Positions 5,049 through 40,815 of a stretch of 41,197 nt of DNA are shown here, piece after piece. Under the pieces are notes generated by a model. That model did not search any database, was not told where the DNA came from, and saw only the letters and a program-made list of their open reading frames with translations. The stretch lies in NCBI RefSeq assembly GCF_004010195.1, contig NC_057752.1, forward strand, positions 11,616,915 through 11,658,111, written 5' to 3'. Origin of the DNA: Chiloscyllium plagiosum (lineage: Eukaryota). How positions within the stretch are numbered: position 1 is the stretch's first letter; each line of letters begins with the position of its first letter. A program made the translations under genes and the position numbers.

Positions 5049-5394
5049 GACGGCACAGTTGCTCAGTGGTTTGCCCTGCTACCTCACAGCGCCAGGGACG
5101 TGGGTTTGATTCCAGATTCGGGTAAGTGTCCATGTGGAATTTTCACACTCTTCCTGTGTCTGTGTGGGTTACCTCTGGGTGCTCCGGTTTTCTCCCACAG
5201 TGGAAATATGTGCAGGTTAGGTGAATTGGCCATGCTGAATTCCCCATAGGGATGTGTAGCTTAGTTGCTTTAGTCAGTGGCAAATATATGATAGGGGAAT
5301 CGGTGTGGATGCGTTACTTTTCAAAGGGTTGGTGTGGACTTGTTGGACCGGAGGGCCTGTTTCCAAAGTGTAGGGATTCTAATTCTAATTCTAA
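5049..5394 (+). mobile_element. HE1-type tRNA-derived V-SINE
   Basis: Degenerate A/B boxes (TTGCTCAGTGG, GGTTTGATTCC), V-domain (TCTGTGTGGGTT...GGGTGCTCCGGTTTTCTCCCACA), CR1-derived 3' end and (ATTCTA)n tail. Confidence 0.9.
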
Positions 5395-10524: not shown

Positions 10525-11760
10525 TGATAAAGAAAGTAGAGAACAGGATCTGGCCAGAAAACATAAAGTAAAGAAGGGAAGGAGAAATAGAAACATGAGG
10601 AATTTTATTATTCCGACGAAGGATTTGATTTAACTGAAGCTTAAATCTGAACGTATTACCTACCTCTGTGAAAGATGGAGTCGAATGTTATGTCACCTTT
10701 TTTTGACAATGTAGTTGGACAGACAAAGTGGTAAAAAGTGCTTTAACCTGAATGTTGTAAGGTATTTTTACAGGTAGAACTAACACTGTGTATGCCGGTT
10801 TATCAGAAGATCAATGTGCAGATCATGAAACTCTTTCAAAGTCAAAATTCAATATTTACGACCTTGTTGCTGAAGCTATCAATTAAAGTTTTGTGTCACA
10901 AATGCCCAAGAAAGTGTAGCATAGATTGGGAGTAAGACAATTAGTATCATCTCCTCATCGTGTAAGTATTCAAGGTGTAATACAATGATGGACCAACGTT
11001 GTAAGATCACGAACAGAGCTTATTGTAAATCTTGTCTTAATGATTCAGATAAAGGAATTCTCTTATTATCATTTTTAATGACAGTTGCTTTGAATGTGTC
11101 GATTGAATTGAGTCTTTTTGAAATGAAATATGACCATGAAATTAATGAAATTGAAAATGGGAAACAACCATTTAGCGACTATGATAATGAAACAAATATC
11201 TGCAGTTGATGGAGATCTGAAACAAAAACAGAAAGTGCTGGAGAAAATCTGGCCCCTTCTGTGGAGAGAGAAACATAGTTGACGCTTCGAGTCTAGTGAC
11301 ACTTCATCAGACTGGTGTACATTATTAACAAACATTAGCTTGGTTGTACAGTCTACATTTGAATGAGAAAGGAAATAGCTAAGCATTAGGGTAAGCATTT
11401 TCGATGGAAAGATGGTTGTCAGAATGTGAAGCAGTTTTTGTGAAGCTGAAGACAATTCTGATAAATCAACCAGCTTTTCCCACCCATGACTTTCCAGGGT
11501 TTGGAAATGATGGTGGATGCATATAGGTGCAATCTTGTTACAGGATGGTTAATCCTTCATAGAAAATCCAGCAAAGTCCTGTTTGAAGAAACGATATCAG
11601 TATCTGAGGACGCACTCCACCATAGAAATATTGACATTATTATTTGTTCTTCAACGCATTGAAATCTATGTTTGAAAGAGTAACAGAGAAATATTCATAT
11701 ACACTGCCCATTATCCATTGGCATTCAGTTAAAAAAGCTGAAAAGAAAATACAATTCAGA
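10525..11760 (+). mobile_element. Continuation of the Gypsy (Gmr1-like) element: gag capsid remnant and RT-connection/RNase H remnant, internally deleted
   Basis: About 10767-10885 translates FTGRTNTVYAGLSEDQCADHETLSKSKFNIYDLVAEA (capsid-like). About 11413-11726 translates WLSECEAVFVKLKTILINQP...VDA..IGAILLQDG*..ENPA..HSTIE..LQRIEIYV..IYTAHYPLAF (RNase H DAS/STIE/TDH-like motifs). Stops and frameshifts present. Confidence 0.8.
11190..11316 (-). mobile_element. Penelope-like terminal-repeat fragment (second family) with degenerate hammerhead motif
   Basis: Minus strand reads CTGATGA-A-GTGTC-ACTA-GACTC-GAAG-CGTC-AACT (11310-11277), followed by ...TTCTCCAGCAC...GATCTCCATCAACTGCAG, resembling the 3' ends of the other Penelope-like inserts. 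Confidence 0.65.
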
Positions 11761-11794: not shown

Positions 11795-12495
11795 ACTTGC
11801 TAACACTGCAGCTATAAACTGACAAAAAAACCCAGTCGTGCATTTTCACTGGAATAAGGTATTCCAATTCTCTTTGTAATCCAAACTGAGTGCAGTTCAC
11901 CCCCAATGGATAATCTCAAGACTAAATGTTCACTGGCATCAGGGTTTCAATTCTGGGCATTAAGCGCCACTCTTTGCATTACCACATTGATAGATAACCC
12001 CAGGAATATGGAGCCACTAAGGTCAGAACTTCAACTCAGGTCAGAGTCACACACTGAGTACACTTCTACATCAACAGACAATGCTGGGTGCACGGGTTCA
12101 CTGGGATCACGCACTCCACTCCAGTTAATTACACTCACTGAGTGCAGTTATAGACTGACATACAACCTCAATAATATCTGGAGACACGATCAGATATTCC
12201 ATTCCAGTTAGAGCATCTCCCTGAGTGCAGTTGTTCCCTGACAGATAATCCCAGGACTCATTGTTCAACCGGTTTTAGGGATACAGCTCTGATCATTAAT
12301 GCACACTGGGAGCAGTTCAACACTGACAGATAATCCCAGTCATACATGGTCACTGGGAGTAGGCTTTCCATTCTGGCTGAGAAGCAAACTATTTGCAGTT
12401 CTACACTAACAGATAATCACAATAATGTGTATTCACTGGGATCAAACAGTCCATTCTGTTCAGTAAACAGACACTGAGTGTAGTTCAGCTCTGAT
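11795..12495. repeat. Old degenerate tandem repeat, period about 84 bp, about 8.5 units
   Basis: An ACTGAGTGCAGTT-like anchor recurs at 11885, 11969, 12053, 12137, 12220, 12305, 12388 and 12473, each followed by GATAATCCCAG-like and TTCACTGGGATCA-like motifs. Confidence 0.85.
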
Positions 12496-12855: not shown

Positions 12856-12865
12856 CATCATTTCA

Positions 12866-12973
12866 CTTATTTATGTAGCAACACTGTGCAAGTTCAGAGA
12901 AAAGTTTACAAACGCATTAATGTTTCCTTTTAAGCAAACTACTCAATGTCAGCATCAACAAAACAAATGGTAA
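12866..12973 (+). pseudogene. Truncated GPR139-like paralogue remnant (TM7 end/helix 8 only)
   Basis: LIYVATLCKFREKFTNALMFPFKQTTQCQHQQNKW* matches the intact gene's C-terminus (21/23 aa identical over the first 23), and the downstream flank is also homologous. Confidence 0.9.
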
Positions 12974-13138: not shown

Positions 13139-13407
13139 GGCACGGTGGCTCAGTGGTTAACAGTGCTGCCTCACAGCGCCAGAGACCCGGGTTCAATTCC
13201 CGTCTGTGTGGAGTTTGCACATTCTCCCCGTGTCTGCGTGGGTTTCCTCCGGGAGCTCCGGTTTCCTCCCACAATCCAAAAATGTGCTGGTTAGGTGAAT
13301 TGGCCATGCTATAATTGTGGGTTGCTCTTCAGAGAGTCGGCGTGGACTTGTTGGACCGAAGGGCCTGTTTCCACACTGTAAGTAATCTAATCTAAAACAC
13401 TTGTAAT
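13139..13407 (+). mobile_element. HE1 V-SINE with 7-bp target-site duplication
   Basis: A box TGGCTCAGTGG, B box GGTTCAATTCC, intact V-domain and (TAATC)n tail. CTACTGT duplicated at 13132-13138 and 13408-13414. The paralogous site near 28880 is empty. Confidence 0.95.
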
Positions 13408-16204: not shown

Positions 16205-16498
16205 AGCTGAAAATGTGTTGCTGGAAAAGTGCAGCAGGTCAGGCAGCATCCAAGGAGCAGGAGAATCGAACGTTTCAGGCATGAGCCCTTCTTCAGGAAT
16301 GAGGAAAGTGGTTGGAGGGTTCCTAGGTGGAAGATGAGACGCTCTTCCTCCAACCGTTGTGTTGCTATGGTCTGGCGATGGAGGAGTCCAAGGACCTGCA
16401 TGTCCTTGGTGGAGTGGGAGGGGGAGTTGAAGTGTTGAGCACGGGTGGTTAGGTTGGTTGGTCCAGGTGTCCCAGAGGTGTTCTCTGAAACGTTCCGC
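16205..16498 (-). mobile_element. Penelope-like element fragment: GIY-YIG C-terminus plus terminal repeat, 10-bp TSD
   Basis: Minus frames read AERFREHLWDT..NQPN and AQHFNSPSHSTKDMQVLGLL..RLEEERLIFHLGTLQP. TTGGAGTAAG duplicated at 16195-16204 and 16499-16508. Confidence 0.9.
16264..16300 (-). ncRNA. Minimal hammerhead ribozyme motif
   Basis: CTGAAGA (16296-16290), extra A, stem II GGGC-TCAT-GCCT, GAAA, CGTT (putative GUU cleavage triplet). Stem I is weak. Confidence 0.6.
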
Positions 16499-16693
16499 TT
16501 GGAGTAAGGCCAGTTTTGATGGTATCGAACAGGAACTTTCAAAAGTTGATTGGGGAGACTGTTTGAAGATATCAAGCATCAAGCATGTGGGAGGTTTTCA
16601 AAAAAGAGATCATGAGAGTTCAGCAACAGCATGTTCCTGATTGTGTGAACGACAATACTGGTAGATGTAGCTGCTGGAAGATGAGAGATATTG

Positions 16694-16928
16694 GGGGGGA
16701 TGGATTAGAGTGTGCTGGAAAAGCACAGCAGGTCAGGCAGCATCCAAGAAGCAAGAAATTCGATGTTTCGGGCAAAAGTCGTTCATCAGAAACTCTGACT
16801 CCTGATGAAGGGCTTTTGCCCGAAACGTCGATTTTCCTGCTCCTCGGATGCTGCCTGACCTGTGTGCTTTTCCAGCACCACTCTAATCTAGACTCTGATC
16901 TCCAGCATCTGCAGTCCTGACTTTCACC
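16694..16928 (+). mobile_element. Penelope-like fold-back insert (inverted plus direct terminal repeat), 12-bp TSD
   Basis: Imperfect inverted arms about 16703-16789 and 16802-16888 around a 12-nt spacer, then a 3' tail of about 39 nt. TGAGAGATATTG duplicated at 16682-16693 and 16929-16940. Confidence 0.9.
16797..16835 (+). ncRNA. Minimal hammerhead ribozyme motif, best-preserved copy
   Basis: CTGATGA (16802-16808), extra A, perfect stem II GGGC-TTTT-GCCC (16810-16821), GAAA (16822-16825), palindromic ACGT stem III and GTC triplet (predicted cut after 16829). Confidence 0.72.
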
Positions 16929-17202
16929 TGAGAGATATTGAGGCTCTAGTCAAGAAAAATAAAGAAGTAGGTTTGAATGAGAATATAGAATTTATGGTTA
17001 ATAAGTTTGCAGATGACACCAAAATCAGTGTTAAAGTGGACAGTGAGGACGGTTATGGAAGAGTACAACAAGACCTTGATCAAATGGGACAATGGATCGA
17101 GGAGTAGCAGATGGACTTTAATTCAGATGAATGAGAGGTGTTGCATTTTGGCAAGGCAAACCAGGGCAGGACTTATATAGCTAATGGTAGGGCCCTGGTA
17201 AG

Positions 17203-17330
17203 ATTCCAGAAGAAGGGCTTATGCCCGAAACGTCAATTCCCCTGCTCCTTGGATGCTGCCTGGCCTGCTGTGTTTTTCCAGCATCACATTTTTCAACTCT
17301 GGTCTCCAGCATCTGCAGTCCTCACTTCCT
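17203..17330 (+). mobile_element. Penelope-like solo terminal repeat, 10-bp TSD, hammerhead core mutated
   Basis: CAGAAGA-A-GGGC-TTAT-GCCC-GAAA-CGTC followed by the shared CCAGCATCTGCAGTCCTCACTT end. CCCTGGTAAG duplicated at 17193-17202 and 17331-17340. Confidence 0.9.
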
Positions 17331-19813: not shown

Positions 19814-19952
19814 CTGAAAAATGTGTTGCTGGAAAAACGCAGCAGGTCAGGCAGCATCCAAGGAGCAGGAGAATCGACGTTTCGGGCATAAGCCCTTTTC
19901 CAGCAACACATTTTTCAGCTCTGATCTCCAGCAACTGCAGTCCTCACTTTCT
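19814..19952 (+). mobile_element. Penelope-like fold-back mini-insert in the receptor intron, TSD up to 16 bp
   Basis: Perfect 24-bp inverted repeat (GCTGAAAAATGTGTTGCTGGAAAA / TTTTCCAGCAACACATTTTTCAGC) enclosing an antisense half-hammerhead (GGGC-TTAT-GCCC-GAAA-CGTC). CCTGAATCAATGTGGG at 19798-19813 and 19953-19968. Confidence 0.9.
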
Positions 19953-26768: not shown

Positions 26769-26921
26769 TTTTGGATCAGTGGTGCTGGAAGAGCACAGCA
26801 ATTCAGGCAGCATCCGAAAAGCTTCGAAGCTTTTCGGATGCTGCCTGAATTGCTGTGCTCTTCCAGCACCACTGATCCAGAATCTGGTTTCCAGCATCTG
26901 CAGTCATTGTTTTTACCTCGT
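26769..26921 (+). mobile_element. Penelope-like fold-back insert forming a perfect 108-bp palindrome (26772-26879), 14-bp TSD
   Basis: 54-bp arms with zero spacer, centred between 26825 and 26826. The tail TCTGGTTTCCAGCATCTGCAGTCATTGTTTTTACCT is identical to that at about 36684-36719. GGATTTCACCTTGG at 26755-26768 and 26922-26935. Confidence 0.93.
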
Positions 26922-27811
26922 GGATTTCACCTTGGACCAGGATTGAGAATGATGCCAGGAACCCCGAGGCCCCCACACCAGCAGTCAGAAAGTAGGGTTC
27001 CCCACATGCAGGGGTCAAGGAGACTTGTTGTTAACCATGCCAAAAGTAGTTTCAGCTAATAGATTCACTCATTAGCTTGGGTATGTCTCGAATGTATATT
27101 AAATGGATTAAGCTAATAAATCTGATTTATATCAAAAAGCACATGTTTTCTTGTAATAATTTGATCAACCTAAAGGAACCTGAAAGGGATTTTCATCCTA
27201 ACAATAGACTGACAAGTAGTACGTTGGAATAAAGGGAAATCTACCAGATTTCTTGTACATGAATCTATCAACAAACGTTTGACTCATTGCTAAAAATGGT
27301 CGACAAGTGATTTTAAAAAATCCCTGAATGATGTGCAATTACCAACAAGGATTGGCTCGTTAACGTGGCTTGGGAGTTGTGGGTGGAGTTAAAAGTAATG
27401 GTGAGTAAAGCTGATCGACAGGGGGTAAGATCATAACATGTGACATGTGAAGGACAGACACTCAAGTCAGAGAGTGAGTCTATTGGGGTAGTGAGTATTT
27501 CTTTGAATGTCAGGCACTTTGCAACAGAAAAGGAAATAGAATACGTTGCAGCCGGTGGAGCAGAGGGTCTACTCCAACGTTACACTTCTCCAGCTTTAGA
27601 CACACAATGCCTCACTGGAATATTAAAGCACTGACCTGCTTCCAGTGAGCAGGCCGCTACATCCCTCTGACAGATACCTGTTCAATCTGATCTGAACACC
27701 TTGCAGACCTGTTGAAGTCATGGCTGATTTTTTTTTTCAATGGTCTGTCCTCAGAAACTGTGAATGATTTTTCTGTAATTACTAATCTCCTTTCTCTTCA
27801 CTCTCTCACAG

Positions 27812-28701
27812 TGAATTTACTAGCACTTGTGATTTTATTCAGAGGAAAATGTGGGATATCCCCATGCACCACCTGTTACCTGATCGCCATGGCAGCAGCA
27901 GATCTACTGTACATTATCCTTGAGGTCATACTGTACCGGATCAATAATTATTATTTCCCTCTGAATTTCTTGGATGTGACGACTGTCTGCAGAGTTCACT
28001 ACACCCTGCGCCGTGCTGCCACCGATTGTTCTGTCTGGTTCACCGTAACTTTTACCTTTGATCGATTTGTTGCCATTTGTTGCCAGAAGTTGAAAATGAA
28101 ATATTGCACCAAGAAAACTGCGACAGTGGTTCTAGCAACAACAGGCATTCTGCTCTGTTTCAAAAACATTCCCACCTACTTCAGGTACGAAGCTAAACGA
28201 ATCATTAACAATGTCGAGTGGTACTGCACCAATACTGAAGCATATTATAGTGATCCCATATGGAGAGGATTCAATAGGTTTGAAAAGGTCTTAACTCCAA
28301 TGCTCCCATTTGCTTTAATTCTGTTGATCAACACTCTGACAGTCAGGTACATTTTAGTGGCCAGTCGGGCCCGTAAGAGATTGAGAGATCAGAGCAAGGG
28401 GCAGAATCATTGTGACCTAGAGATGGAGAGCAGAAGAAAGTCTATCATTTTACTCTTTTTTATATCCAGTAGTTTCATCCTTTTATGGATGTGGTACCTT
28501 TTGAAATATTTTAATACCTTAGATCCATTATTAGAAGAAAATTCTGAATATATATTCCGATACGTCGCAAATATGCTCCGGGATATAAATTGCTGCACAA
28601 ACACACTTATTTATGTGGCAACACTGTCCAAGTTCAGAGAAAACTTTACAAATGCATTGATGTTTCCTTTTAAGCGAATTATTCATTGTAAGCATCAATA
28701 A
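27812..28701 (+). CDS. GPR139/GPR142-like class A GPCR, exon 2 (spliced product 318 aa, apparently intact)
   Basis: Branch-like CTAAT at about 27782, pyrimidine tract and acceptor CACAG| at 27811. Open frame with seven-TM motifs YLIAMAAADL, SVWFTVTFTFDRFVAIC, TM3/ECL2 Cys pair, LPFALILLIN and CTNTLIY..SKFR. No specific orthologue symbol can be assigned. Confidence 0.93.
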
Positions 28702-30270
28702 AACAAATGGTAATGTCACACCATGCAAAGGGGAATGCATAACAGTGATTGCTAGATGAATGGAGGAAAAGAAAGTTTCTGTTGCAGAACATCTGTCCAC
28801 TATTAGTGATGACGATAAATGCACACAAAGCATTTATACAAGGAAGTCATTAACCATTGCGTTTAAGACACACCAGAGACTACTGCATCAAAAACAACGG
28901 ATGAACATGAAGGAATGGGAACAACCAGTGTTGCAAAGTCTCCTGAGGAGCAGAAGAAGGCAGAATTCACAGAAATTGTTCTCACTACATTGGTTTGATT
29001 CTTAGCTGCTCACATCATGAAGAATATCTAATTCTGTGAAAAGAAAATGCTGTGCGTGGTGGAAATTTTCATGTGCCAATCTATGACTAAACTTTAAGGA
29101 GGATTATCATGGTATACTATCTTCTTATTAATACAAATTACAAACACTGGAGAACAGTGAGTAGTGACTGACCTTGACAAAAAGAGATATTTTACAATTT
29201 GCAGCATAAAAAGCCATTGCAAAACTGGAGTCAATGTGAATCAGGGGGCAATCTTTCCTCTGTTTGAAGGATCATGGAAGACAATGGAAGATAGTTGTTG
29301 TTGTTTGGGGATGGGTAACTCAGTTCCAGGACATCTCTGCAGGATTTCCTTCATGTAGTATCCCAGGCCCAACCATTTTACACTGTGTCCACCACAATAT
29401 CAAAGGGAAGGATGTTCACTGATGATGCACAACATTCAGCAAAACTGATTAAGAAAGTCTGATATGGGGCAATTCTGTGAAGAGACAGAGACCATTTAGA
29501 ATAACAAGGAGACAATCGGTAGAGAAGTGAAATGTATACTTCGTTTCTGTCTCAACACAGGAGGTCTCCCTGAAATAAGCAAGATTCAATGATCCAGTGA
29601 AAGTGTGGAACTGACAGAAATTTGATATTGAAGAGAAGATGCATTGTAAAAAATAATGATGCTGAAAATTACTACATTGAGGGGTCCGCTGGCCTTTGTC
29701 TGAGACCGTTGAAAATAATGTTGATAAAGGTAGCGAATGAGATTAATATCTCAACGCAGACTGCTGTTTGGTATTTTGAAAACGCAACATCATTCTTTAA
29801 AAAAGGAGAGAGTAAGAACATTTCCAATGCAGATCTATAAACCTGACATCAGTAGTCGGGAATATAACGAACTTATTTGAAGGCAAGTGATTATTTGACA
29901 GGTGGAAACAGATTCTCTACTTCAGCAGAGGCAGCACGGAATTGTGAAGGGGAGAGAACTGAGAGGATTTCCTGAAGATGTTACTGGCAGAGTTGATGTG
30001 GTGAAGCAGTGTATGTGGTGTATTTGGAATATGAGAAGGATTTTGATAATGTGCCTCATGGGAAACAATATGAATGTGCATGGGATTACGGGTAATATAC
30101 CACCATACATGAAGGATATTGTCACAGACATGATTGGAACATTGAACTGGGAATCAAGACACACTCGAAAACAAGTCATCTCAAAAATGAAATACTTACA
30201 GATGGTCAACATCTCACTGATCTCCATCGAAGATTAAAAAAAGCATCAGTTCCCATAGTGACTGTTAAAA
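28604..30270 (+). repeat. Right copy of the local segmental duplication
   Basis: Collinear similarity to 12864-15298, lacking the HE1 and Tx1 insertions of the left copy. Confidence 0.9.
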
Positions 30271-30271
30271 T

Positions 30272-32645
30272 CATTCATTCACTGCAGCCCTCCCTTTGTG
30301 ACTTCATACATTCATTGCAGCCCTCGTTATCTCAGTATCATTCACTCAGTGCAGCCCTACCTATCTCTGGAACATTATTCACTCACTACATCCCTCCCTA
30401 TCTCTGTAACATCACTCACTCACTGCATCCCTCCCTATCTCTGTAACATCATTCACTCCTGTACATCATTCACTCACTGCAGTCCTCCCTATCTCTGTAA
30501 TGTCACTCACTCACTGCAGCCCTCCCTATCTCTGTAACATCATTCACTCACTGCAGCCCTCCCTATCTCTGCAACATCATTCACTCACTGCAGCCCTCCC
30601 TATCTCTGTAACATCATTCACTCACTGCAGCCCTCCCTGTCTCTGCAACATCATTCACTCACTGCAGCCCTCCCTATCTCTGTAACATCATTCATTCACT
30701 GCAGCCCTCCCTATCTCTGCAACATCATTCACTCACTGCAGCCCTCTCTATCTCTGTGACATCACTCACTCACTGCAGCCTTCCTATATCTGTAAAATCA
30801 TTCACTCACTGCAGCCCACCCTATCTCTGTCACATCATTCAGTCACTGAAGCGCTACTTTTCTCTTAAATATCATTCACTCACTGCAGCATTTCCATATT
30901 TCTGTAACATGATCCAGTCACTGCATCACTCCTTATCTCTGTAACATCATTCAGTCAATGCAGCCCTCCCTATATGAGTAACATCATTCACACACTGTAG
31001 CGCTCCCTATCTCTGTAACATCATTTGCTCACTGCAGTGCTGCTTATCTCTGTGCCATCATTCAGTCACTGCAGCCCTGCCTATCTCTGTACTATCATTT
31101 AGTAACTGCAGCGCTCCCTATCTCTGTTCCATCATTCAGTCACTGCAGCATTTCTTTTCTCTATAACATCATTTAGTCAATGCAGCGCTTCCTATATCTG
31201 TGACATCAGTCACTCACTACAGCCGCCCCTATCTACATAGCAGCATTCAGTCACTGCAGCACTCCTTATCTCTGCACCATCATTCACTCACTGCCGCCCT
31301 CTCTATATCTGTAACATCATTCGCTCACTACAGCGTTCTGTATCTCTATACCATCATTCAGGCACTGCAGCCCTCCCTATCTCTGTAAAATCATTCAGTC
31401 ACTGCAGCAATCCCTATCATTGTAACATTATTCAGTCGCTGCATCCCTCCCTATCTCTGCAACATCATTCACTCACTGCAACCCTCCCTAATTCTGTAAT
31501 ATCATTCACTCACTGCAGCCCTCCCTGTCTCTGTGACATCATTCACTCACTGCAGTCCTCCCTATCTCTGTTACATCATTCAATCAGTGCAGGCCTCCCT
31601 AACTCTGTAACATCATTCACTCACTGCAGCACTCCTTGTCTGTGTAACATCATTCAGTCGCTGAAGCTCTCCCTATCTCTGTAACATCATTCACTCACTG
31701 CTATCCTCCGTAATTCTGTAACATCATTCACTCACTGCAGCTGTCCCTATCTACATAGCATCATTCAGTCACTGCGGCACTCCTTATCTCTGCAACATCA
31801 TTCACTCCCTCCAGCCCTCCCTAATTCTGCAATATCATTCACTTATTGCATCCCTCCCTATCTCTGTAATATCATTCACTCACTGCAATCCTCCCTATCT
31901 CTGCAACATAATTCACTCACTGCAGTCTCCCTGTCTCTGTGACATTATTCACTCACTGCAGTCCTCCCTAATTCTGTAACCACATTCAGTCACTGCAGCA
32001 CTCCCTGTCTGTGTAACATCATTCACTCACTGCAGTACTCCCTTACTCTCTAACATTATTCTGTCACTGCAGGACTCACTAATGCTGTCCCATCACTCCA
32101 TCCCTCCCTGCCTCTGTAGCATCATTCACTTACTGCGTCCCTCCCAACCTCTGTAACATCATTCATTCACTGCAGTTCTCCATGTCTCTGTCGCATCATT
32201 CACTCACTACAGAGCTCCCTATCTCAGCAACATCATTCAGTCACTGCCGCCCTCCCTATCTCTATAACATCATTCAAACAATACAACTCTCAGTATCTCT
32301 GTAGCATCATTCACTCACCATAGTGCTGCCGATCTCTGTACCATCTTTCAGTCACGGCAGACCTCCCCATCTCTGTAATATCATTCAGACACTGCAGCCC
32401 TCCTTATCTCTGTAATATCATTCAGTCACTGCATCGCTCCCTATATCTGTACCATCATTCAGTCATCACAACCCTCCCTATCTTTGTACCATCAATTAGT
32501 CACTGCAGCCCTCCCTAACTCTGTAACATTATTCAGTCACAGCAGTATTCCAGCCCTTCCTAACTCTGTAATATTAATCATTCACTGCAGTCCTCCCTAT
32601 CTCTGTTACATCATTCACTCACTGCAACCCTCCCAGTCTCTGTAG
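30272..32645. repeat. 37-bp minisatellite, about 64 copies (CATTCACTCACTGCAGCCCTCCCTATCTCTGTAACAT)
   Basis: Unit starts at 30541 and 30578 and continues in phase. Near-perfect units at about 30500-30750, with more diverged units elsewhere. Confidence 0.97.
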
Positions 32646-35924: not shown

Positions 35925-36815
35925 TTTTTCCACTAGTGGGACGTGGGCGTCGCTGGCTGGGCCCAGCATTTATTGTCTGTCCCTAGTTGCCCCTAGAAGA
36001 TGGTGGTGAGCTGCTTCCTGAACTGCATCAGTCCATTTGCTGTATGTTGACCCACCATGTTGTTTAGGAGGGAGCTCCAGGATTTTGACTCAGCAACTGT
36101 GAAGGAACGGCAATATATTTCCAAATCAGAACGGTGAGTAGCTTGGAGGGAAAGTGCAGGGATTGATATTCCCAAGTATCTGCTGTCCTTCTCCTTCTAG
36201 ATCAAAGTGGTCATGGGTTTGGAAGGTGCTGTGTGAGGAGCCTTGGTGAATTTCTGCAGTGCATCTGGTAAGTGGTACATACTGCTGCTACTGAGCGTCA
36301 GATGTGGGGGGTGTGGATGCTTGTGGATGTACAGCCCAATCAAGCGAGCTGCATTGACCTGCACATCCACTAATATCATTTATTGTATCCGTTGCTCCCG
36401 ATGCGGTCTCCTCTACATTGGGGAGACTGGGCGCCTCCTAGCAGAGCGCTTTAGGGAACATCTCCGAGACACCCGCACCAATCAACCAAACCGCCCCGTG
36501 GCCCAACATTTCAACCCCCCCTCCCACTCTGCCAAGGATATGGAGGTGCTGGGCCTCCTCCACCACCGCTCCCTCACCACCAGACAGCCTTCAGCCTGAA
36601 GGGCTTTTGCCCGAAACGTCGATTTCGCTGCTCCTTGGATGCTGCCTGAACTGCTGTGCTCTTCCAGCACCACTAATCCAGAATCTGGTTTCCAGCATCT
36701 GCAGTCATTGTTTTTACCTTGCTGACTGACCTGCTCTGTTTATCCAGCACCACTCTAATCTTGTCCTGGATGGAGTCGAGCTTCTTGCTGGGATTGCATC
36801 CATCCATGCAAGTGA
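35925..36815 (-). mobile_element. Non-LTR retrotransposon 3' end distinct from the other CR1 copies (clade unresolved), interrupted by a Penelope-like insert
   Basis: ORF 35993-36175 ends SFTVAESKSWSSLLN..GLMQFRK (WNSLP-like LINE C-terminus), followed by AATAAA on the minus strand. Confidence 0.6.
36357..36760 (+). mobile_element. Penelope-like element: GIY-YIG endonuclease fragment plus terminal repeat
   Basis: TCTSTNIIYCIRCSRCGLLYIGETGRLLAERFREHLRD..VAQHFNPPSH, i.e. GIY-YIG with the CxxC insertion typical of Penelope-like elements. Followed by a hammerhead remnant (CTGA-A-GGGC-TTTT-GCCC-GAAA-CGTC, 3 nt missing) and the shared tail. Confidence 0.93.
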
Positions 36816-36838: not shown

Positions 36839-37153
36839 TTAGATTAGATTACTTACAGTGTGGAAACAGGCCCGTCGGCCCAACAAGTCCACGCCGACCT
36901 GCCGAAGCACAACCTAACCAGACCCATTCCCCTACATTTACCCCTTCACCTAACACTACGGGCAAGTTAGCATGGCCAATTCACCTAACCTGCACATTTT
37001 TGGACTGTGGGAGGATACCAGAGCACCCGGAGAAAACCCACGCAGACACGGGAAGAATGTGCAAACTCCACACAGTCAGTCGCCTGAGGTGGGAATTGAA
37101 TGTGGATCTCTGGTGCTGTGAGGCAGCAGTGCTAACCACTGTGCCACCGTGCC
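36839..37153 (-). mobile_element. HE1 V-SINE
   Basis: Reverse complement GGCACGGTGGCACAGTGGTTAGCACTGCTGCCTCACAG, V-domain and (TAATC)n tail. Confidence 0.93.
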
Positions 37154-37462
37154 CCCATATAACTGCATATGTATTAAGTAACTTGGTGCTGACTCAATGG
37201 CTAGACAGTGTTTTGAACAGAGAACTCCACATGACAACTTTCACTCTCAATCTTAAAATTGGTTGAGAAGATGCCGCATTTGTGTGCACAAATATATTTT
37301 TACAAAGCAACATTAATCATCTTGTGAACGTACAATACAGGAGAAGCATGCCATTCAGTCCTCAAGCCTGTCCCACAATCCAATAAGATCTTGGTTGATC
37401 TGTTAAATTTAGAAACCTCACTCTCTCAATCTTGCTGTCAAGATTCAGCAACTGGGTGACAA

Positions 37463-39208: not shown

Positions 39209-39318
39209 GGAGAAAGTGAGTAGCAGTCCTGATGAAGGACCTATGCCTGAAACATCGATTCTCCTGCTCCTCAGATGCTATCTGACCTGCTGTGCTTTTC
39301 CAGCACCACACTCTCGAC
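39209..39318 (+). mobile_element. Penelope-like terminal-repeat fragment with degenerate hammerhead
   Basis: CTGATGA (39229-39235)-A-GGAC-CTAT-GCCT-GAAA-CATC-GATTCTCCTGCTCC...TTTTCCAGCACCAC. Confidence 0.85.
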
Positions 39319-39329
39319 ATAGGCCTAAC

Positions 39330-40815
39330 ATTGCCTGCTCTTTCGTCTTCTGATGATGTTCTGAACAGGAAAGTAGAGGCCAGTTAGTTCATCTGTAGAT
39401 GGGAAAATGGTGGAGGCTATTATTAAAGAAAAAATAATGAGACATTTGGATAGAAAGGATTTCACAAGGCAAATGCAGAATGGATTCAGAAAGGGAAGGT
39501 CGTGTTTGACAATCTGATTGGAACTCTTTGAGGATGTAACAATCGCGCTGGATGGAGGGGAACAGTTGGATGTTGTATCCTTGGATTTCCAAAAGGCATT
39601 CAACATAATGCCACATACAAGACTCATCCATAAGATAAGAATGCATGGAGCTGTGGGGAATGTTCTAGTACAGATAGAGGACTGGCTCATCAGAAAATGG
39701 GTGTTTCTCTGGTTGGAGATCATTGGTGAGCAGGGTCTGTGTTGGACCCGCAACTATTCATGATATATAGAAATCATCTGGAAGAGGAGACAAAGCGTAA
39801 CGTATCCAAGTTTGCTGATGACGTGAAACTGAGTGGAAAGGCAAACTGTGCAAAGGGTGTGGAGGGTCTGCAGAGACGTTTAGATCGGTTAAATGAGTGG
39901 ACAAAGGGCTGGCAGATGGGGTACAAGTCGCCAAATGTGAGGTTATCCACTTTGGAAGTAAAAATACTCAGTCAAAGTATTACTTAAATGATAGTCATGA
40001 TTTGGAGGTGCCGGTGATGATTTGGGGTGTACAAAGTTAAAAAATCACACAAATCAGGTTATAGTCCAACAGGCCAATTTGGAAGTACTTGATTTCAGTG
40101 TGCTGCTCCGTCATCGGGTGGTTGAATCGTTAAAAGTTAATTTTCAGGTGCAACAGGCAATCAGGAAGACAAATGGAACATTGTCTTTCACTGCCACAGG
40201 GATTGAATTTCAGAGCAAGGAGGTTCTGCTGCAATTGTACAAGGTATTGGTGAGGCCACACATGGGGTGTTGTGCTCAGTTCTGGTCTCTGGACTTGAGG
40301 AAGTATCTACTGGCTTTGGAGGTGGTGCAGAGGAGGTTCACGCGGTTGATTCCGGAGATAAGGGAAATACCTGATGAGGAGAGGTTGAGCCGCCTGGGAC
40401 TGTAATCACAACAGTTTAGAAAAATGAGAAGGGGATCTTATAGAAACACATAAAATTATGAGATAGAGGGAGGCAGGTTGTTTCCGCTGGTGGGTGAGAC
40501 TAGGACGAGGGGAAATGGCTTCAAGATTAGGGGGAGTAGATTTAGGACAGAGATGAGGGGGATCTGAATTTCCCACAGAGTAGTGAGTCGATGGAATTCT
40601 CTGCCCAGGGAAGCAGTAGAGACAGCTTTATTATATAAATTCAACACACAGTCGGATGGATTTTTGTATTATGGTCGGGGAATTAACGTTTATGAGGATA
40701 ATGCAGGTAGAAGGAACTGAGACGATGGATATATCAGCCATGATCTTAATGATTGGCAGAGCGGGCTCGACGGACCAAATGGCCTACTCCTGCTTCTATT
40801 ACTATGAAACTATAA
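39330..40815 (+). mobile_element. 5'-truncated CR1 LINE
   Basis: LDFQKAF, SKFADD, LYKVLVRPH..AQFWS..VQRRFTRLIP, and the 3' end AATGGCCTACTCCTGCTTCTA. Confidence 0.92.
39993..40125 (-). mobile_element. Third-family Penelope-like terminal fragment inserted in CR1, highly degenerate hammerhead
   Basis: Minus strand reads CCGATGA-C-GGAGC-AGC-ACACT-GAAA. Shares its end with 12497-12540. Confidence 0.5.

Follow-up and report, generated by a model that had tools for sequence, protein, structure and literature searches.

Why does a short stretch of shark DNA hold nine hammerhead ribozyme motifs, and what do they record of the element that left them there? The window, by which we mean the whole stretch analysed, comprises 41,197 nucleotides of Chiloscyllium plagiosum contig NC_057752.1 (positions 11,616,915 to 11,658,111 of the forward strand; RefSeq assembly GCF_004010195.1). 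An initial annotation had placed nine complete or partial hammerheads in it. Only the motif at 16802-16829 (+) keeps the core, stem II, the ACGU palindrome and any stem I. Read directly, it is CUGAUGA-A-GGGC-UUUU-GCCC-GAAA-CGUC, which agrees with the intact core claimed for it, and it is found both by a strict minimal-hammerhead descriptor and by a covariance model (48.3 bits). The CUGAUGA box lies at 16802-16808, followed by an extra A at 16809, stem II (16810-16813 paired with 16818-16821), GAAA at 16822-16825 and the ACGU palindrome at 16825-16828; cleavage is predicted after C16829. All parts of a minimal type I hammerhead are present, as had been proposed: a CUGANGA...GAAA-N-N'-UH core, a closed stem II and an extra base at 9/10.1. 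In the relative numbering used below the first core base, C3, is 0 and the predicted cut falls between +27 and +28.

Stem I (16798-16833) consists of 2 bp (16800-16801 with 16830-16831), one mismatch and then A16798-U16833, and folding gives it a pairing probability of about 0.03 as a monomer. It had rightly been called weak: families A and B and the focal copy have only two contiguous base pairs here. A16798 occupies position -4, the commonest start of copies. On the 3' side of the predicted cut, the terminal-repeat segment at 16830-16928 (+) ends at the far tail end (about +125). The focal copy is one arm of a head-to-head insertion whose inverted second arm (16700-16792, -) contains a damaged hammerhead at 16789-16762, and a 12-bp target-site duplication flanks the whole (left, 16682-16693, +; right, 16929-16940). 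The two arms pair in any read-through RNA, which is predicted to fold into one long hairpin (-144.4 kcal/mol) with a stem II probability of 0.

A chance origin of the motifs is ruled out by shuffling and by a control pattern. The strict descriptor finds two matches in the window (16802 + and 16296 -), where 100 shuffles average 0.02. In a 575,589-nt sample, taken in even steps along the five largest contigs, it finds 27 matches, compared with 1 in 10 shuffles; 13 of these 27 have at least three contiguous stem I pairs. Genome-wide, a general intact-core pattern matches 144,483 times and its control 32 times, so the very large ribozyme-bearing repeat population suspected from the window exists. 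The exact 28-nt motif occurs 53,445 times (control, 0) and the tail motif 160,838 times. The sample contains 25 general cores, where 23.4 are expected from the genome-wide count, and stem II has at least 4 bp in 23 of them; its tail counts of 96 and 25 extrapolate to some 0.6-0.75 million end modules. The palindromic, loopless stem III is ACGU or AGCU in 98 of the first 100 core matches listed (hand tally). No Rfam hammerhead is found in the window at E <= 5, as expected because the motifs are without stem III, and the best Rfam match, MIR6024 (below its gathering score), is the head-to-head hairpin.

All nine motifs named in the window are present. Eight of them are detected at E <= 1e-4 by a covariance model trained on 16 copies from outside the window; the ninth, at 40117 (-), belongs to family D, which was left out of the model, and is confirmed by a downstream motif. 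The second core match, 16296-16269 (-), had been listed as an intact copy: its core is indeed intact, but an extra base after GUU leaves it with 0 stem I pairs in register. It lies in an insertion (16205-16498, -) in which a GIY-YIG fragment (about 16498-16310) is deletion-joined to the hammerhead and a short tail, flanked by a 10-bp duplication (16195-16204/16499-16508). A mini-copy at 17203-17330 (+) starts exactly at -4, carries a hammerhead (17207-17234) with a U4-to-A change and has a 10-bp duplication (17193-17202/17331-17340). The insertion at 19814-19952 (-) is head-to-head, with a partial hammerhead at 19897-19876 and a 16-bp duplication (19798-19813/19953-19968). At 36345-36718 (+), a GIY-YIG coding piece (36345-36587) is deletion-joined to a partial hammerhead (36597-36621) and a full tail, and at 39229-39312 (+) a damaged hammerhead (39229-39256) with a short tail follows a 12-nt inverted stub, with no clear duplication. 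An old sister-family copy at 11281-11310 (-) has a 5-bp stem II and GAAG in place of GAAA (covariance model E 7.5e-5), and a heavily damaged family D copy at 40089-40117 (-) has a GGAGC/GCUCC stem, an AGCU palindrome and an unrelated tail.

Damage is thus the rule in the window (8 of the 9 copies). The CUGANGA box is lost at the junction in the copies at 19903 and 36597, and those at 16789 and 39229 combine ACAU, a CpG decay product, with a damaged stem II. Target-site duplications of 10-16 bp accompany 5 of the 9 window insertions. A tenth insertion, absent from the earlier list, contains a 57-bp perfect hairpin (26769-26882) and no core: it is head-to-head, folded back at the palindrome, and spans 26769-26921 between 14-bp duplications (26755-26768/26922-26935). 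Two details of the original description change. The second family, reported with a GTGTC/GACTC stem, is real, but the 11310 copy itself carries a U-U mismatch in that stem; its intact relatives have GGGTC or GAGTC paired with GAC(T/C)C. Two hammerheads do directly adjoin GIY-YIG sequence on its 3' side, as noted, but because of internal deletions and not as native spacing; intact copies have about 470-490 nt between the YIGET codons and the core. Copies in the window are single or head-to-head; head-to-tail arrays of the short unit do not occur there, and the tandem arrays that do are unrelated.

The window also holds features of other kinds. A single-exon rhodopsin-type receptor frame (PF00001) at 27691-28701 (+) weakly resembles somatostatin receptor 3 and GPR139; a frameshifted paralogue and a fragment lie nearby (4352-3443, -, and 12863-12958, +). 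A 37-bp minisatellite of about 60 copies fills 30266-32644, and degenerate repeats at 11797-12458 are spaced at multiples of 84 bp. Copies of a tRNA-derived SINE, which we take to resemble the shark HE1 SINE, lie at 5052, 13139, 17955, 33785 (+) and 36956-37156 (-); a tRNA-like Rfam match at 13139-13211 is below threshold. Long 'open frames' returned by the frame search are runs of N and not genes.

The host of the hammerheads is a Penelope-like element, as the initial annotation had proposed. The segment at 36345-36584 encodes a GIY-YIG domain (PF01541, E 5.6e-6, above cut-off), and a frame joining reverse transcriptase (RT) and GIY-YIG endonuclease (EN) lies just upstream of the hammerhead in three fetched copies: by 157-213 nt in loci L261 and L160, and in locus L262 with the hammerhead at the end of a 754-aa frame. 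The closest named relatives of the window domain are Chiloscyllium punctatum proteins (78-80%). Relatives join RT and GIY-YIG in one 894-aa frame; such copies also occur in the C. plagiosum genome. A CX4CxxC linker separates RT and EN in L073 and P0001. The CX2-5CxxC class of motif at this position defines the Neptune and Nematis clades in the accessible text of PMC8557442, and because of this linker the analysis supports placing the hammerheads, as minimal type I motifs, in terminal repeats of elements of Neptune or Nematis type. At L159:4371-3700 (-), the element frame seems to carry a long Thr/Ser/Pro-rich insert between an N-terminal block and the RT.

Tail ends are bimodal among 90 tail-selected copies, with 47 at +86 to +96 and 34 at +122 to +129, about 36-40 nt apart, in agreement with loose ends in independent sequence data; an inverted arm is joined head-to-head in 34 of the 90. 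The longest fetched element copies are 5'-truncated, partial repeat tandems occur in 7 loci, and an intact junction between 5' repeat and ORF is absent among the fetched copies. Seven loci run past the tail into common element sequence with an ATG near +163, and a 5' leader of about 165 nt is therefore likely made up of ribozyme plus tail; the frame that follows has weak likeness to the relatives (E 0.02-0.06). In all tail-bearing families a conserved ATG at +46 opens a short frame, MLP[DE]LL, a possible upstream ORF. The downstream ATG lies in a different frame from it in family B but shares its frame in one family C copy.

The claim of several families holds, and the genome offers five or more natural variants (among them families A, B, C and D and a group with a U3-A8 core). 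Covariation, proposed earlier as a check on these families, is found: 8 of 9 pairs change on both sides, a score that 0 of 500 shuffles reach, and the alignment is 89.6% paired against 19-46% in slid controls. Its 15 distinct rows (family D left out) are hand-picked and related by descent, and therefore amount to a few events, not many. Comparison across families shows two-sided changes at all four stem I pairs, and concerted change of both stems, I and II, of the palindrome (which is ACGU or AGCU) and of the C3-G8 pair. The U3-A8 core has 790 exact copies genome-wide, with a perfect AGCU stem I, and one copy sits downstream of GIY-YIG sequence. Among the first 100 of the 790 listed (hand tally), both the U3 and A8 changes are present in 99 and one change in 1, and the swap counts as one inherited event. 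In families A1 and U3-A8, -4 is the first position of a stem I exactly 4 bp long. Hammerheads at L221-L240 and L151:4819-4863 are of the U3-A8 type with a self-complementary AGCU stem I, and several U3-A8 copies fold back exactly at this palindrome. Within families the picture differs from the earlier expectation that core would be better conserved than flanking repeat: 46 gap-free copies show changes in 27/460 core cells against 48/598 and 84/1,472 in the tail, and in 49/276 CpG cells. There is no core excess because inserted copies decay neutrally, with an excess at CpG, and the selective signal lies between families.

The 5' ends of the copies are concentrated just in front of the motif. 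Of the 90 tail-selected copies, 14 run into N and 7 extend beyond the fetched edge; among the 69 that are informative, 32 end at -8 to +8 (17 of those at -6 to -2), 12 end inside the core (+9 to +25) and 17 lie far upstream, in addition to the 21 uninformative ones. In an unbiased set of 67 copies, 53 of them informative, 34 end at -8 to +8 and 1 at +26 to +30. Family A contributes 5,359 copies with a non-template base at -5 (a break at -4), against 632 with one at -8 (a break at -7) under a laxer pattern. Independent contigs (X15) and RNA reads (X19) have loose ends at -4/-3, and the depth of run X15 shows no drop at the cut site but declines from 9.1 million to 1.5 million at the core's front edge. 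For U3-A8, 13 of 20 fetched copies begin at -4, in a search whose pattern required those four bases. For family D we predicted a start shifted to -8, beyond its 3-bp stem I, and a non-template base directly precedes A(-8) in 3,971 copies, a count without a matched control position; by eye, about 6 of 19 short local family D copies end at -8. Most short copies stop in front of the motif likely because the element RNA begins there, a placement drawn from copy ends. A splice acceptor was considered as the cause and rejected because junctions lead to flank or inverted arm, and because AG is missing at -4 in families A and B; only 2 of 90 junctions lead to upstream element sequence.

Upstream of this 5' pile, four families carry a TATA or TATA-like box at a distance of 31-33 nt. 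TATAAA occurs at -35 to -37 in 7/27 U3-A8 copies and at -36 to -40 in 5/7 family D copies, TTTATCT at -35/-36 in 16/71 family A copies, and (C/T)TTATCT at -37 in 35/61 copies of families B and C; copies without the box are mostly truncated before its position. The two largest families, A and B, thus have TTATCT instead of a canonical TATA box. At the start itself an A is preceded by a pyrimidine, at -4 in three groups and at -8 in family D. An untemplated G is a mark of cap copying in LINE-1 and SVA (PMC4859970, accessible text), and here the signal of such a cap-derived G is mixed. The base before the family D start is a G in 68 of the first 100 copies listed and an A in 9 (hand tally; Fisher p 0.018 against the control); the control position is itself G-rich (34 G, 14 A). 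Families A and B do not differ from the control position in this respect (p ~0.4), G precedes the start in 1/13 U3-A8 junctions, and in 7/9 flank-type junctions it falls inside the target duplication.

The predicted cut site gives evidence against cut RNA as the usual template. Three of the 69 tail-selected copies start at +28, which suggested a second pile, not supported by the genome-wide count for family A: 262 copies start at the cut site against 332 at the +30 control, in two-base tests whose design differs from that of the -4 count. Nearest-neighbour energies place the active dimer fold 5-12 kcal/mol above the predicted minimum, in line with the low unaided activity of minimal hammerheads (PMC4209133) and with the protein dependence of the anole ribozyme, which is protein-assisted and dispensable for insertion in vitro, where mutants leave insertion unaffected (PMC11167929; both as far as the accessible texts go). 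RNA run X19 yielded 2,364 reads from about 2% of the run, and X20 yielded 0. The X19 reads are host read-through, because they come from both strands and 93% run on into other sequence, and hold no information on the element's own start. Their ends do not accumulate at the cut site, a weak test.

Taken together, our preferred explanation, to which we assign a probability of about 0.6, is that the window copies are short, neutrally decaying insertions of minimal type I Penelope-like hammerheads, likely reverse-transcribed from uncut RNA up to a predicted start 4-8 nt before the core. RNA polymerase II would start at the first base of stem I in families A, B and U3-A8, and 8 nt before the core in family D. 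The element protein would prime inside the tail, as it does in vitro for the anole element (PMC11167929), and where a tandem RNA is copied from its first repeat, the cDNA would reach the 5' end and run off after 90-130 nt; if both target strands served as primers, the head-to-head pairs (34 of 90 joins) would result. Source elements under selection would keep the ribozyme, whose cleavage would require a protein-assisted dimer formed through the ACGU/AGCU palindrome. Because cleavage within the first repeat would take away the cap plus 32 nt, it would likely act as an off-switch or RNA-fate switch and not as a template-making step. A bolder version, which the sequence patterns make possible but which we hold tentatively, takes the shark hammerhead to be the capped 5' end of the mRNA: a TATA-type promoter in the repeat would start transcription at the first base of stem I, the hundreds of thousands of 90-130 nt insertions would be strong-stop-like cDNAs recording that start, and protein-assisted dimer cleavage would decap the element's own RNA as a feedback switch.

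The same elements could leave a 5' pile if reverse transcriptase arrest, an endonuclease cut or microhomology joining acted at the front edge of the ribozyme. We regard this as unlikely, though it has real points in its favour: by eye, the target at 6 of 9 flank-type junctions continues with A, AT or ATT, like the element's ATT at -4, the anole enzyme favours ATT (PMC11167929, accessible text), and ends are scattered over -8 to +8. Against these, a second ATT at +29 would be met first and has no pile (0/69), the family D pile at -8 lies away from the edge of its stem I, and the spacing of -31 to the box recurs in four families. Routine cleavage of the RNA to unit length, perhaps followed by circularization, would make the ribozyme product the template, as PMC4209133 proposes in its accessible part. 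Strong between-family selection on the fold suits this scheme, and a rejoined circle would leave no mark of the cut site; linear cut RNA is not enriched as a template (262 against 332), the 2,364 reads lack a pile at the cut site (weakly informative), ribozyme mutants do not affect insertion in vitro (PMC11167929, accessible text) and a circle leaves ends at -4 unexplained, so that we consider it improbable.

Two further possibilities concern the copies themselves. A self-propagating non-autonomous family of 90-130 nt units, SINE- or retrozyme-like and repeatedly copied by Penelope protein, would account for the very high copy number, for the duplications on both sides and for a tail priming site in every unit. 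We give it little credence: short copies carry the same subfamily marks as RT-EN-linked copies, a unit starting at -4 is without the upstream box, and the window contains no head-to-tail unit arrays. That the host keeps single genomic copies such as 16802 as working ribozymes is very improbable; the 16802 copy is intact and copies occur in polyA RNA from both strands, but its inverted arm traps it in a hairpin, 8/9 window copies are damaged and decay is neutral with CpG excess. The role of hammerheads in Penelope-like elements is a puzzle, in that they are conserved yet dispensable for insertion in vitro. More than 100,000 insertion records in the shark genome bear on it and place the likely start at the ribozyme's first base. 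What this analysis adds is that testable placement of the transcription start together with evidence against cut RNA as the usual template, and five or more natural variants, including one whose U3-A8 core comes with a stem I of four perfect base pairs, are ready substrates.

The kind of motif described here is not new, and its occurrence in a shark is an expected extension of work published in 2014. Our literature search found no paper that places the transcription start at the ribozyme or treats sharks, and Lunse et al. (2017) may list shark examples. A whale shark paper reportedly names Penelope only as present. Cervera and de la Pena (2014; PMC4209133) described minimal hammerheads in metazoan Penelope-like elements, within the terminal repeats (pLTRs). 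As far as its accessible text goes, those motifs share with the shark ones CUGANGA, the extra base before stem II, G10.1-C11.1, a loopless palindromic 15.2-16.2 pairing, a stem I of 2-4 bp, solo copies from truncated elements and opposite-strand pairs. A U3-A8 core variant occurs in both, in Schistosoma there and in shark here, and that text yielded no vertebrate example. Table S1 and Figure S3 of that paper contain no shark; its counts of about 4,000 motifs in coelacanth and about 9,000 in Xenopus compare with 144,483 cores in the shark, obtained with different descriptors. The template processing proposed there contrasts with the lack of enrichment at shark cut sites.

The available part of the work on the anole Poseidon element PAc (Frangieh et al. 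2024; PMC11167929) gives the closest mechanistic likeness: two priming sites bound a 30-40 nt tail, both strands are extended, uncut RNA is the main template and RNA ends are not seen at the cut site. The anole ORF begins at stem II, whereas in the shark a 5' leader of about 165 nt seems to contain both ribozyme and tail, and the shark protein has a Neptune/Nematis CX4CxxC linker, unlike the anole protein. In Drosophila virilis Penelope, an internal promoter starts transcription 46 nt upstream of an intron whose end lies at stem I (PMC2377424; PMC4209133; accessible texts), so a ribozyme at the cap would not be general. Other EN+ elements (Craig et al. 2021, PMC8557442; Arkhipova et al. 2013, PMC3846280) resemble the shark element in 5' truncation, inverted 5' copies, an optional tail and short duplications (8-10 bp). 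A putative TATA box and initiator are noted there for a rotifer pLTR; in the accessible portions of these papers, unlike in the shark analysis, the start is neither placed at the ribozyme nor mapped from copy ends, and PMC3846280 attributes head-to-head palindromes to self-priming on an antisense template. Non-LTR retrozymes (bioRxiv 10.64898/2026.07.22.740005, accessible text) are likewise non-coding, hammerhead-bearing and pLTR-derived, with one chondrichthyan reported; they form head-to-tail tandem units (mean 363 bp in that species), whereas the shark units are dispersed, single or head-to-head, with target duplications.
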